Origin: Flavobacteriaceae bacterium
Lineage (GTDB): Bacteria > Bacteroidota > Bacteroidia > Flavobacteriales > Flavobacteriaceae
Reading direction: 5' to 3'
NCBI GenBank assembly: GCA_018674025.1
Contig: JABHBC010000241.1
Span: 1 to 33,349, forward strand
DNA: 33,349 bases
Part shown: piece after piece, positions 4,430 through 7,160 of the stretch
Layout: the number at the start of each line of letters is the position of its first letter
Position numbering within the stretch: the first letter of the stretch is position 1
Made by a program: the position numbers and the translations under genes
The notes under the pieces: generated by a model
The model's database searches: none
Seen by the model: only the letters and a program-made list of their open reading frames with translations
What the model was told of the DNA's origin: nothing

Positions 4430-5437
4430 TTATATTACTTGAAAGCCATGTGCATATGGATCTTCATCATCTATCAATATTTTATTATAACCATAAACCT
4501 TTGCCCAGCCTTCAACAGATGGAACAATAGCATCAAATTCCCCTACCTTAGATTCTCTTTCTACTTGACCAGTAAATTTTGAACCAATATAACTTTCATG
4601 AACGAATTGTTCTTTAATTTTTAGGTCTCCTCTTTCATATAATTGTGCCATTCTTGCAGAAGTTCCTGTCCCACAAGGTGATCTATCAATAGCTTTATCA
4701 CCATAAAACACAGCATTTCTTGAACTAGAACAACTATCTAAAGTATTCCCTGTCCATAATAAATGACTAACGCCGCGAATTGAACTATCATTAGGGTGAA
4801 TAAACCTATTGGGGTATTTCTTGTTAATTTTTTTTCTAATTTCTTGTGAATAACGAATTATTTCTCCAGCTTTATAATTATGAATTCCCGAGAAATTATT
4901 TTGTGGCTCTATGATAGCATAATAATTTCCACCATAAGAAACATCAAAAAATATTTCACCTAAATCATTTGAAACAATTGAGCACTTTTTAGCAGCTAAA
5001 AAACTGTCTACATTAGTTAATTTTACAGAATTAACTTTTTCATCGATTTGCTTATAAGTGATATTAATAATTCCTGCTGGTGTCTCTATATTTAAATATC
5101 CAGATTTTTTTGGAATTATCAGCTTTTCCTGAATAGCTATTGTTACAGCTCCAATTGTTCCATGTCCACACATTGGTAAACATCCAGATGTTTCTATATA
5201 TAAAATACTAAAATCATTTTCAGAACTATGGGATGGAAAAAGAATAGCTCCACTCATCATATCATGGCCTCTAGGCTCAAACATTAAACCTTTTCTAATC
5301 CAATCAAAATTATTTAAAAAAAACTGTCTTTTTTCACTCATATTAATTCCATGAAGAATTGGAGCTCCTTCAACAATTAGTCTAACAGGATTTCCACAGG
5401 TGTGTGCATCTATACACTTAAAAACTGATCTACTCAT
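4430..5437 (-). CDS. 4-hydroxyproline 2-epimerase (proline racemase superfamily, Cys/Cys type)
   Basis: IDAHTCGNPVR N-terminal motif. Both catalytic cysteines are present: LPMCGHG (Cys codon 5168-5170) and DRSPCGTGTSA (Cys codon 4673-4675). The ORF track starts at a TTG (5452). I prefer the ATG five codons downstream (5437), which overlaps the DUF885 stop by 8 nt (ATGAGTAG). Confidence 0.85.
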   Translation of the reverse strand: MSRSVFKCIDAHTCGNPVRLIVEGAPILHGINMSEKRQFFLNNFDWIRKGLMFEPRGHDMMSGAILFPSHSSENDFSILYIETSGCLPMCGHGTIGAVTIAIQEKLIIPKKSGYLNIETPAGIINITYKQIDEKVNSVKLTNVDSFLAAKKCSIVSNDLGEIFFDVSYGGNYYAIIEPQNNFSGIHNYKAGEIIRYSQEIRKKINKKYPNRFIHPNDSSIRGVSHLLWTGNTLDSCSSSRNAVFYGDKAIDRSPCGTGTSARMAQLYERGDLKIKEQFVHESYIGSKFTGQVERESKVGEFDAIVPSVEGWAKVYGYNKILIDDEDPYAHGFQVI

Positions 5438-7160
5438 TTTTATTTTCTTCAATATAATTTAAAACTCTTGACTCCAATATGGCAAGTGTAACAGTTCCTT
5501 CAGATAAAATTATTTCATGAAAATCACGAATATTAAAATTTGATTTTAATTTCTCTTCAGCTAAAATTCTTAACTCTCTGATTTTTAATTCACCTATTTT
5601 ATATGACAATGCTTGGCCAGGCCAAGAAATATATCTATCTGTTTCAGTATTAATTTCATGTAAAGAAAGTGCTGTGTTTGATGACATATAATTTAAAACC
5701 ATTTCCTTTGACCAATCTAATGCATGAATACCAGTATCTACTACTAACCTACACGCCCTCCACATTTCATATGTGAGTTTACCGAATTGTTCATATGGGG
5801 TTGTATATAAACCCATCTCTTCAGCTAAATACTCAGTATAAAGACCCCAACCTTCTCCGTATGCAGAAAGATATAAGTTTTTTCTAAATGATGGTATTTT
5901 ATCACCTAATTCATTGTTTAACGCCGATTGGAGGTGATGGCCAGGAACAGCTTCATGAACTGTAAGAGCTGGTATTGTGTAGAGCGTTCTACTTTTTAAA
6001 TCATATGTATTTACCCAATAATATCCTGGGTCAGTACTATTTTTTGAAGTTCCCACATACCTTCCACTAGTATACTTAGGGGCAATTGCATCTGGAACTG
6101 GTGCAACTCCATACGGTTTCCTGGGAAGTGTTTTAAAAAACCTTGGTAGTTGCTCATCAGCTCTCTTTGCAATATCTCTAGCGTACATTAATAATTCTTT
6201 TGGAGTATTTGCATAAAACTGATTGTCAGTTCTTAAAAATTTAAAAAAATCCTCAAATGAACCTTGAAATTTGAGTTCCTTAATAATTTTTTTCATTTCT
6301 GATTTTATTCTTGCTACTTCATCTAATCCAATTTGATGAATTTTTTCAGCTGTGTATTCTTTACTAGTTGTATAATAATTAATTCTATTTTGATAGTACT
6401 CTTTTCCATTTGGAGTACTTGAAATTCCAATTTTGGTTCTGGTTTTAGGATAATATTCTTTTTCAAAGAATTTCTTTATTTTCTTAAACTGTGGAACCAC
6501 AATTTCATTAATTGAGATTTTAGCAGCTTTAAGAATCGAGTCTGATTGACTTTGAGATATATCTTTTGGTAAATTTTTAAACGGAGAATAGAAATAATTA
6601 TTTAAATAATTATTTGTAATATGATCATCATAAGTAGATTCATATCCGTCAAAAATAACTAAAGGTTGAGAAACTCCTTTCTCCAAACCAATTCTTATAT
6701 TAGTTAAATTTTGGTTTACAAATTCAGGCAAAGAATTCAATTTATTTAAATATTCTATAGTCTTTTTGTAATTTGATAATGGACGAACCATGTAGTTTAA
6801 ACTACTATGAAATCCTGAATCTGAAAGAAGAGGATTTAAATATCTTTCAAAATTATAGTAATCAACTATATCGTTTAATTCAAATTTTAATAATTCATAA
6901 GAAATTAAATTATTTTCATCTAAATCATTGGTGTCAATATTTTCAAGTTGGTTTAATAAGTCTAACGCAAAATTAGCTTCGCTTTCAAAATGCTCTTTAG
7001 TAAATAGGCCCAAAGGATATTCATTACCATCATAAGACTCATGATCTTGGTAAATTGTTATTATTTCTTGCAATTTCTTTTTTGAATTTTCTGAAAATTT
7101 AATAACAACTCCGGTTATTAATAAAATTATAGCTAATACTGATAAGACTGAATTTTTCAT
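5430..7160 (-). CDS. DUF885-family protein (putative zinc metallohydrolase) with N-terminal signal anchor
   Basis: 576 aa. The N-terminus MKNSVLSVLAIILLITGVVIKF is a hydrophobic signal/anchor without a lipobox Cys. The conserved HEAVPGHH motif lies at about nt 5934-5957. Overall sequence is typical of PF05960 proteins as I recall them. Its start codon abuts the upstream ALDH stop with 0 nt gap. Confidence 0.7.
   Translation of the reverse strand: MKNSVLSVLAIILLITGVVIKFSENSKKKLQEIITIYQDHESYDGNEYPLGLFTKEHFESEANFALDLLNQLENIDTNDLDENNLISYELLKFELNDIVDYYNFERYLNPLLSDSGFHSSLNYMVRPLSNYKKTIEYLNKLNSLPEFVNQNLTNIRIGLEKGVSQPLVIFDGYESTYDDHITNNYLNNYFYSPFKNLPKDISQSQSDSILKAAKISINEIVVPQFKKIKKFFEKEYYPKTRTKIGISSTPNGKEYYQNRINYYTTSKEYTAEKIHQIGLDEVARIKSEMKKIIKELKFQGSFEDFFKFLRTDNQFYANTPKELLMYARDIAKRADEQLPRFFKTLPRKPYGVAPVPDAIAPKYTSGRYVGTSKNSTDPGYYWVNTYDLKSRTLYTIPALTVHEAVPGHHLQSALNNELGDKIPSFRKNLYLSAYGEGWGLYTEYLAEEMGLYTTPYEQFGKLTYEMWRACRLVVDTGIHALDWSKEMVLNYMSSNTALSLHEINTETDRYISWPGQALSYKIGELKIRELRILAEEKLKSNFNIRDFHEIILSEGTVTLAILESRVLNYIEENKNE

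Follow-up and report, generated by a model that had tools for sequence, protein, structure and literature searches.

A DUF885 gene within a hydroxyproline catabolic operon of a Flavobacteriaceae bacterium, a candidate exported peptidase with recurrent linkage to hydroxyproline genes

The hydroxyproline operon

Contig JABHBC010000241.1 of assembly GCA_018674025.1, from a Flavobacteriaceae bacterium, was analysed over positions 1 to 33,349, the whole of this stretch being referred to here as the window. It carries five head-to-tail genes on the minus strand, for a DapA-like protein, an aldehyde dehydrogenase (ALDH), a DUF885 protein, a 4-hydroxyproline epimerase and a flavoenzyme of the DAO family, and it is the DUF885 gene, lying in the midst of genes for the catabolism of hydroxyproline (Hyp), that is the subject here. 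The DapA-like gene (8746..9651) matches PF00701 (DHDPS, E = 5.4e-61) but, at 176 bits against a cut-off of 206, falls below the dapA equivalog. The ALDH gene (7161..8744) matches PF00171 (Aldedh, E = 5.5e-42); its top NCBIfam match is alpha-ketoglutarate semialdehyde (KGSA) dehydrogenase, with a score far under the cut-off, and from this family-level match and its context it is probably an alpha-KGSA dehydrogenase. The DUF885 gene (5430..7160) has an ATG start and encodes 576 aa that match PF05960 with E = 5.5e-148. The epimerase gene (4430..5437), of 335 aa from the ATG at 5437, scores 547.6 bits against the NF010578 cut-off of 376 and matches PF05544 (Pro_racemase, E = 3.6e-116); the TTG at 5452 in the mechanical list of open reading frames (ORFs) is probably not its true start. 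The last gene (3181..4428), an FAD-dependent oxidoreductase of the DAO family (PF01266, E = 4.1e-59), reaches 263 bits in the D-amino-acid dehydrogenase subfamily, below the cut-off; it is probably the D-Hyp dehydrogenase and is a constant partner in all related clusters.

The epimerase is thus the sole pathway gene above a curated NCBIfam equivalog cut-off, the DapA-like, ALDH and DAO genes being assigned at the family level only. All four enzyme families of the L-Hyp pathway are present and adjacent, DAO, DHDPS and Aldedh genes being found with the epimerase in every related cluster, and the DapA-like gene adjoins the ALDH and epimerase genes in all of them. Known bacterial L-Hyp clusters encode an epimerase, a D-Hyp dehydrogenase, a pyrroline-4-hydroxy-2-carboxylate (Pyr4H2C) deaminase and a KGSA dehydrogenase, families that all occur in the operon of the window. 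The locus is a variant of the known Hyp and collagen utilisation clusters, such as that of Colwellia (PMC7883544), and no new kind of system.

The junctions on both sides of the DUF885 gene are tight. The stop codon of the ALDH gene (TAA, 7163-7161) abuts the DUF885 start codon (ATG, 7160-7158) with 0 nt between them, while at the junction with the epimerase (aaaATGAGTAGatc) the ATG at 5437 precedes the DUF885 stop codon (TAG, 5432-5430), giving an overlap of 8 nt (ATGAGTAG). The remaining junctions, DapA-like to ALDH and epimerase to DAO, are each of 1 nt. An earlier note on this DNA had placed the 576-aa ORF between the semialdehyde dehydrogenase and the epimerase with just such a 0-nt junction and overlap, and both are confirmed in the sequence. 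The position of DUF885 in the gene order is beyond chance, the same 8-nt overlap with the epimerase being found in five other clusters.

The operon directly follows HemW and RuvC genes and has no AraC-family regulator, unlike its relatives. In the related flavobacterial Hyp clusters, compared with window positions 9652-12470, a divergent AraC-family regulator is always present upstream of or beside the DapA-like gene, which suggests that it has been lost in this small genome of about 30% GC. Small unrelated genes (of the DUF1272, DUF559, DUF3781 and 23S_rRNA_IVP families) interrupt the operon in several relatives; the version in the window is the most compact, with zero inserts.

Transcription

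The operon is transcribed in seawater metatranscriptomes, being covered by contigs assembled from four marine data sets, although strand is not recorded for these contigs and such libraries can contain DNA. The ALDH/DUF885 junction is spanned by contigs from X1 (7115-9621), X3 (7072-7365) and X5 (6289-7584), the DUF885/epimerase junction by contigs from X1 (5253-5697) and X3 (5126-5518), and the epimerase/DAO junction by contigs from X1 (3811-4466) and X5 (4142-4615). That the DUF885 gene is embedded in the Hyp operon, as had been claimed from the gene spacing, and is co-transcribed with it is therefore borne out by the tight junctions and by the RNA-derived contigs that cross them.

There is likely to be an operon promoter in the AT-rich 36-nt gap between the HemW-like and DapA-like genes (9652..9687, minus strand). 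This gap contains TAACTTTA, a 7/8 match to the Bacteroidota -7 consensus TAnnTTTG. Contig depth in run X1, at 16, drops to 2.8 upstream of 9575, immediately before the DapA-like gene, which fits a single transcript starting in the gap. A scan for sigma-70 promoters and terminators gave background level only in this AT-rich DNA.

The DUF885 protein and its conserved motif

The protein scores 495.3 bits against PF05960, where the cut-off is 32.4, and covers profile positions 15-532 of 532. When its C-terminal half is searched against Pfam at E<=10, DUF885 alone is returned; there is no match to an M24 (pita-bread) domain in Pfam, and NCBIfam has no model for the protein. An initial homolog search recovered only marine sequences of 97-100% identity, and family diversity was taken from profile queries and from a search of 1.84 billion representatives, in which 13,072 DUF885 clusters at 50% identity reach E<=0.001.

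To assess conservation, 80 diverse representatives, each of full length and 31-48% identical to the protein of the window, were aligned. Residues H402, P406, G407, H408, W438, Y441, E443, R468 and R471 are invariant, as are H479, R509, Y520, G523, H548 and Y256, while E403 and E436 are conserved in at least 90%. The sequence HEAVPGHH (aa 402-409, 5934..5957, minus strand) lies exactly where the earlier note had located it and contains the putative metal-binding and catalytic site H402-E403-x-x-P406-G407-H408. H409 is not invariant, and is N in the paralog linked to GH127 that is described below. Further on, GEGW (aa 435-438, 5847..5858, minus strand) provides E436, on the next long helix of the predicted structure, as a candidate third metal ligand, so that the conserved core of DUF885 is HExxPGH plus a downstream Glu. 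The proposal that the HE..H motif is a metal site stands in so far as the motif is the conserved family core, but its spacing is HExxPGH and not HExxH.

The AlphaFold2 (AF2) model of the protein is mostly helical, with a pLDDT of 88.6. Three short strands (350-354, 366-369 and 379-383) precede the HE helix, which ends at H402/E403; after the Pro-Gly break the next helix begins at H408, and E436 sits on a long helix at 432-448. Strands, HE helix and E436 helix follow, in the model, the zincin order. A model of the catalytic domain only (aa 341-576, 13 sequences) has a pLDDT of 51.8.

In its predicted workings the protein may be compared with the large two-lobed helical zincins, namely M3 oligopeptidase F, M32 carboxypeptidase, M2 angiotensin-converting enzyme and M49 dipeptidyl peptidase III (DPP III), in which a short beta-sheet precedes the HE helix and a Glu ligand is found on a later helix; the DUF885 model has the same order of strands and helices, with E436 as the candidate ligand. 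DUF885 differs from them in that its motif, HExxPGH, is longer by two residues and has its helix broken at Pro-Gly; in DPP III the motif is likewise expanded, to HExxGH.

In Foldseek searches of the PDB the model matches 3o0y (E = 8e-30, TM 0.82), 3iuk (TM 0.76) and 3u24 (TM 0.71). These three, from Colwellia psychrerythraea (a lipoprotein), Arthrobacter aurescens and Shewanella oneidensis respectively, share family and fold with the protein of the window; 3o0y is also related to it in sequence (phmmer E = 1.6e-67) and has identical HExxPGHH and EGW motifs. No function has been assigned to any of the three and the genomic context of none is described, whereas the gene of the window lies inside a Hyp operon. 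PDB entries of IPR010281 appear among zinc sites in PMC4539273, and DUF885 is placed by Pfam in the clan Peptidase_MA, as quoted in a passage of PMC12572635.

Export

An N-terminal hydrophobic segment, at aa 4-23 (SVLSVLAIILLITGVVIKF; 7092..7151, minus strand), has a Kyte-Doolittle mean of 2.5 over 19 residues and forms a single long helix in the AF2 model; it had been pointed out in the earlier note and is confirmed here. It looks like a signal peptide or an uncleaved signal anchor, the N-terminus having no lipobox Cys and no obvious A-x-A signal-peptidase site. In orthologs and in distant homologs the same position has either ends of the signal peptidase I (SPI) type (...AQN, ...AQT) or lipoboxes (L-S-C, F-G-C, V-A-C). 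Two of the three proteins of known structure are labelled lipoproteins, i.e. exported, where the protein of the window has a hydrophobic anchor and no lipobox, and a DUF885 protein of Riemerella was recovered from the outer-membrane fraction (PMC10281475). Since homologs carry SPI and lipoprotein signals, and since the Riemerella protein is found in an outer-membrane preparation, the catalytic part of the DUF885 protein would be expected outside the cytoplasm, in agreement with the export that had been proposed. The four Hyp enzymes have no export signals.

DUF885 in the Hyp clusters of Flavobacteriaceae

Hyp clusters were sought from the epimerase, using a profile of three flavobacterial epimerases, and 11 contexts were examined, with the ORFs in the fetched loci called mechanically. 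DUF885 is present in 9 of these, 7 with the ortholog and 2 with a paralog. The ortholog is directly upstream of the epimerase in all 7 and is 57-74% identical to the protein of the window in the five compared. The 8-nt overlap is the same in five contexts (Polaribacter haliotis, P. uvawellassae and three metagenome-assembled genomes (MAGs) or isolates), the other two being from Gaetbulibacter jejuensis and a further genome assembly (L169).

Proline-directed peptidases are plentiful in these flavobacterial clusters. Dipeptidyl peptidase IV (DPP-IV) is encoded between the epimerase and the DAO gene, and two M24 enzymes, one of AMP_N type and one of Creatinase_N type, after the DAO gene. There are S28/S37 peptidases in the Hyp clusters of Lutibacter and Lacinutrix and an amidohydrolase in one cluster. 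A second gene of the proline racemase family is present at the far end of one Hyp/peptidase cluster (L168, 14042-15008, minus strand), possibly for trans-3-Hyp or proline.

It had been suggested that DUF885 accounts for the absence of a classical prolidase gene from the operon. This cannot be maintained, as the operons of relatives hold DUF885 together with M24 prolidase-like, aminopeptidase-P-like and DPP-IV genes, and such co-occurrence indicates that it supplies an additional step and is no substitute. The enzymes known to release a terminal Pro or Hyp from short peptides are prolidase or Xaa-Pro dipeptidase, aminopeptidase P (M24B) and the amidohydrolase prolidases (cog1228, e.g. 3feq/3n2c), and enzymes of this type occur in Hyp and collagen utilisation clusters, for example that of Colwellia (PMC7883544). 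Their folds are unrelated to DUF885 and M24B is usually cytoplasmic; since they share one operon with DUF885, the latter must add a different step.

The two contexts with the paralog, in Flagellimonas aequoris and a Bacteroidota MAG, are of another type, in that the DUF885 protein is 22% identical to that of the window (with HELLPGHN and TEGW) and its gene is immediately after a GH127 gene. In these two Hyp clusters (L165, 8186-13016, and L170, 3337-8162), a GH127 plus Laminin_G_3 protein of about 1010 aa is followed by the divergent DUF885 paralog. HypBA1, by which beta-L-arabinofuranose is removed from the Hyp-linked oligosaccharides of plant Hyp-rich glycoproteins, belongs to GH127 (PMC7263609, PMC10850190, PMC6085000), so that these clusters point to Hyp-arabinoside glycopeptides of Hyp-rich glycoproteins as substrate. 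Collagen alone, which the earlier note had in view for its test on peptides, is therefore too narrow as a source of Hyp, given two clusters with DUF885 paralog and GH127; algal and plant glycoproteins may be sources as well as collagen. The laminarin-type locus elsewhere in the window, of a sort usual in flavobacteria of algal blooms, agrees with this.

These clusters also bear on whether DUF885 might instead cleave a non-peptide or modified Hyp conjugate, such as N-acyl-Hyp or a glycosylated Hyp (glyco)peptide of Hyp-rich glycoproteins. The paralog adjoins GH127 in two clusters, GH127 enzymes act on Hyp-linked beta-L-arabinooligosaccharides (PMC7263609, PMC10850190), alpha-galactosidase and sulfatase genes are just downstream in a Steroidobacteraceae locus (L071, described below), and the fold has no significant match to a known peptidase. 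The GH127-linked protein is, however, a distant paralog and not the ortholog of the gene of the window, the ortholog type being found with DPP-IV, aminopeptidase P and prolidase, which are plain peptide enzymes, and the signature HE...H...E denotes the hydrolysis of amide bonds by zincins. Action on such a conjugate is thus improbable, and hydrolysis of Hyp peptides is the interpretation preferred here.

DUF885 contexts in other genomes

A forward scan was made by pattern in one genome per GTDB species, with 600 pattern matches sampled, and the contexts considered are the best 80 of at least 596 confirmed DUF885 loci. Four of these 80 are Hyp-linked, in Lutibacter and Dokdonia, which have the order of the window, in a Chitinophagia MAG, with DapA-like, ALDH and DUF885 genes followed by the epimerase further on, and in a Steroidobacteraceae MAG. 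The context of an acidobacterial homolog is uninformative. That the Hyp-linked DUF885 genes might form a single specialised clade was considered and rejected, as the linked genes are scattered over a neighbour-joining tree whose branching agrees with taxonomy.

The Steroidobacteraceae locus (L071) encodes a TonB-dependent receptor, epimerase, GntR regulator, amidohydrolase, DUF885, DapA-like protein, APC amino-acid permease and DAO. The amidohydrolase has a signal peptide, is related to the cog1228 prolidase/arginine carboxypeptidase group and has its stop codon overlapped by DUF885, which also has a signal peptide. Genes for an outer-membrane receptor and a permease therefore bracket those for two periplasmic hydrolases, and import through a permease for free amino acids implies that amino acids are released in the periplasm.

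DUF885 genes repeatedly adjoin genes of the amidohydrolase superfamily (L003 4430-7781; L071 6094-9518; L010, L057, L081 and L167). The adjacent amidohydrolases are of two unrelated subtypes, D-aminoacylase-like Amidohydro_3 and cog1228 prolidase/Arg-carboxypeptidase-like; at times the stop codon of one gene overlaps the start of the other, and some of the pairs are remote from Hyp genes. The amidohydrolases of L003 and L071 cannot be taken as one subfamily, BLASTP finding no similarity between them, though each type does recur elsewhere.

A metagenome scan with the L071 DUF885 gave 80 soil and rhizosphere loci, on contigs that are often short, and loci were counted if they had at least 3 kb of flank. 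Among relatives at least 70% identical to the L071 protein, 23 of 25 are beside DapA-like, DAO or epimerase genes; among those at 60-70% identity the number is 0 of 29. There are at least five arrangements in the linked soil gammaproteobacterial loci, and in several the DUF885 gene immediately precedes a gene of another Pro_racemase subfamily, which has 35-40% identity to the epimerase of L071. That the linkage persists despite rearrangement is a signature of functional coupling rather than of inherited synteny. The flavobacterial ortholog, the GH127-side paralog and the soil gammaproteobacterial clade represent at least three independent recruitments of DUF885.

Were DUF885 not an enzyme at all, it could serve in the periplasm to bind, sense or chaperone Hyp peptides, or its gene could be a hitch-hiker held in place by inherited synteny. 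The family has no known activity, the helical two-lobed architecture seen in the model could bind ligands, and the ALDH-DUF885-epimerase order of the Flavobacteriaceae could reflect one ancestral event. Pure inheritance is nevertheless excluded by the independent gammaproteobacterial arrangements and the use of a different paralog, the gene is transcribed in the sea, and the constellation of invariant His, Glu, Arg and Tyr in 80 representatives points to catalysis, so that a non-enzymatic role is very improbable.

Possible function of the DUF885 protein

The contexts would be explained if DUF885 is an exported peptidase that feeds the Hyp pathway, and this we hold, with limited confidence, to be its probable activity. 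The core of the earlier proposal, that an exported hydrolase supplies Hyp to four cytoplasmic enzymes, is supported by a context that is conserved and has evolved independently, and further by the receptor, hydrolase and permease genes of the L071 cluster.

Encoded on one transcript with the four Hyp enzymes of the cytoplasm, the DUF885 protein would be exported as a periplasm-facing metallohydrolase, probably tethered to the inner membrane in the genome of the window by an uncleaved signal anchor. Its site would be an atypical zincin-like one, with H402, H408 and E436 as metal ligands and E403 as the general base. The substrates would be periplasmic Hyp- and Pro-rich oligopeptides derived from collagen or from the Hyp-rich glycoproteins of algae or plants, and the products either free Hyp or short X-Hyp peptides able to cross the inner membrane, to enter the route of epimerase, D-Hyp dehydrogenase, deaminase and KGSA dehydrogenase.

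The invariant Arg468, Arg471, Arg509, Tyr520, His479 and His548 suggest a grip on a free C-terminal carboxylate, which would make a C-terminal exopeptidase (a carboxypeptidase, peptidyl-dipeptidase or dipeptidase) more likely than an endopeptidase. In this mode Hyp or X-Hyp would be released from the C-terminus, a suggestion that is tentative and rather doubtful. DPP-IV is not known to cleave with Pro or Hyp at P1', and prolidase is poor on Pro-Hyp. An exopeptidase that tolerates Hyp would do just what the co-encoded enzymes leave undone; that the protein is specific for Hyp, as opposed to tolerant of it, seems on the whole unlikely. It may be speculated further that DUF885 is an unrecognised family of periplasmic metallopeptidases (HExxPGH...E), of which the members in Hyp clusters are dedicated imido-bond exopeptidases, freeing Hyp from peptides resistant to DPP-IV and prolidase such as Pro-Hyp, Gly-Pro-Hyp and Ser-Hyp4.

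Several observations weigh against a Hyp peptidase. There is no Hyp gene within 8 kb in 76 of the best 80 loci of the forward scan, among them those of close Flavobacteriaceae orthologs in Salinimicrobium, Pseudotamlana and one MAG, and because most DUF885 genes are not Hyp-linked the core function of the family cannot be Hyp-specific. The Hyp clusters of Tenacibaculum maritimum and Lacinutrix have M24 peptidases and no DUF885, and the operon of the window includes no transporter gene. The topology of the protein in the window would follow from that of its homologs, its own cleavage site being unclear. It lacks the classic HExxH on one active-site helix, having H402-E403-A-V-P406-G407-H408 in its place. 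The significant matches of the full model in the Foldseek search of the PDB are to DUF885 structures only, the nearest peptidases, 2qr4 (M3B, E = 2.3) and 6eom (M49, DPP III, E = 7.2), having TM <0.2 and not being significant, and a profile hmmsearch of the PDB with the 80 representatives matched no peptidase. The expectation of a gluzincin-like fold is accordingly not confirmed, no characterised gluzincin being matched significantly. A functional study of DUF885, PF05960, COG4805 or IPR010281, or of 3O0Y, 3IUK or 3U24, was not found in the searchable literature; in this respect the statement that the family lacks a demonstrated activity holds, none being assigned there.

The linkage to proline-racemase-family, DAO and DapA-like genes that the earlier note had looked for across genomes is thus conserved and has arisen repeatedly, but is not general for DUF885. 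This might mean that DUF885 has a general housekeeping role, as a peptidase of the periplasm that does not prefer Hyp, and that the Hyp operons are broad loci for scavenging peptides and amino acids. The DUF885 tree tracks taxonomy, with most orthologs, close ones included, outside Hyp clusters, and pairing with amidohydrolases is repeated away from Hyp genes (L003, L081, L057, L010). The immediate neighbours are heterogeneous across 45 same-strand partners, with single cases of a POT transporter and of S9, M28 and S33 peptidases, and there is among them no recurrent partner pathway comparable to that for Hyp. Three independent recruitments into Hyp clusters, with 9 of 11 contexts reached from the epimerase and 23 of 25 in the soil clade, would be difficult to account for if no benefit related to Hyp were involved. 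A housekeeping role is for these reasons unlikely, though less so than the other alternatives, and a peptidase feeding the Hyp pathway remains the preferred interpretation.

Other genes in the window

On the plus strand, at 155-3184, is a fusion of 1009 aa comprising an APH-type kinase, Peptidase_M23 and a class-III aminotransferase, which converges on the DAO gene, the stop codons overlapping at 3181-3184. It resembles NCBIfam PRK06148, with a score below the cut-off, and the best PDB match of its C-terminal part is human ethanolamine-phosphate phospho-lyase (6tor, E = 8e-110). In humans, hydroxylysine kinase resembles APH and acts together with a sister phospho-lyase, hydroxylysine being the other collagen-specific amino acid, and the fusion may be a hydroxylysine (or ethanolamine) kinase/phospho-lyase. 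Neither Lutibacter nor Dokdonia shows this adjacency to the Hyp operon.

At 12462-24488 (minus strand) there is a polysaccharide utilisation locus of the laminarin type, characteristic of marine Flavobacteriaceae associated with blooms, with a LacI regulator, GH3, GH16, SusD-like protein and SusC-like TonB receptor, as well as a 293-aa protein without a Pfam match and a 683-aa protein with weak PKD-domain matches. It is followed, outside the operon, by a 779-aa protein with DUF5118, DUF5117 and DUF4953 (Met-zincin) domains (25440-27779, minus strand), a probable secreted zinc protease that could supply peptides, and by a 1459-aa DNA polymerase III alpha subunit with a fused N-terminal RNase_T-type exonuclease domain (27784-32163, minus strand).

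Implications

While both the Hyp pathway and the DUF885 family are already in the catalogues, their repeated association, in loci for the use of Hyp and Pro peptides built around an exported DUF885 protein, seems to be new. A study of gene neighbourhoods in the proline racemase superfamily reports peptidase families for one group and no DUF family in its main text (PMC4113996), and an exported DUF885 embedded between Hyp pathway genes is not described in the searchable literature. The partners in these contexts are Hyp catabolic genes, DPP-IV, aminopeptidase P, prolidase, GH127, a TonB receptor and an amino-acid permease. Through the recurrent Hyp context the function of this very large family becomes open to direct test, and what is gained is a good lead rather than a function.

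Peptides that contain Hyp are notoriously resistant to ordinary peptidases. If the more speculative reading, of an unrecognised family of periplasmic metallopeptidases, is correct, more than 13,000 sequence clusters would receive their first function, and the entry step that is missing from the bacterial catabolism of Hyp, whether of collagen or of cell-wall glycoproteins of algae or plants, would be identified. Such an enzyme would matter for the turnover of collagen and Hyp-rich cell-wall glycoproteins in marine and soil environments, and might be of use in the processing of collagen peptides.

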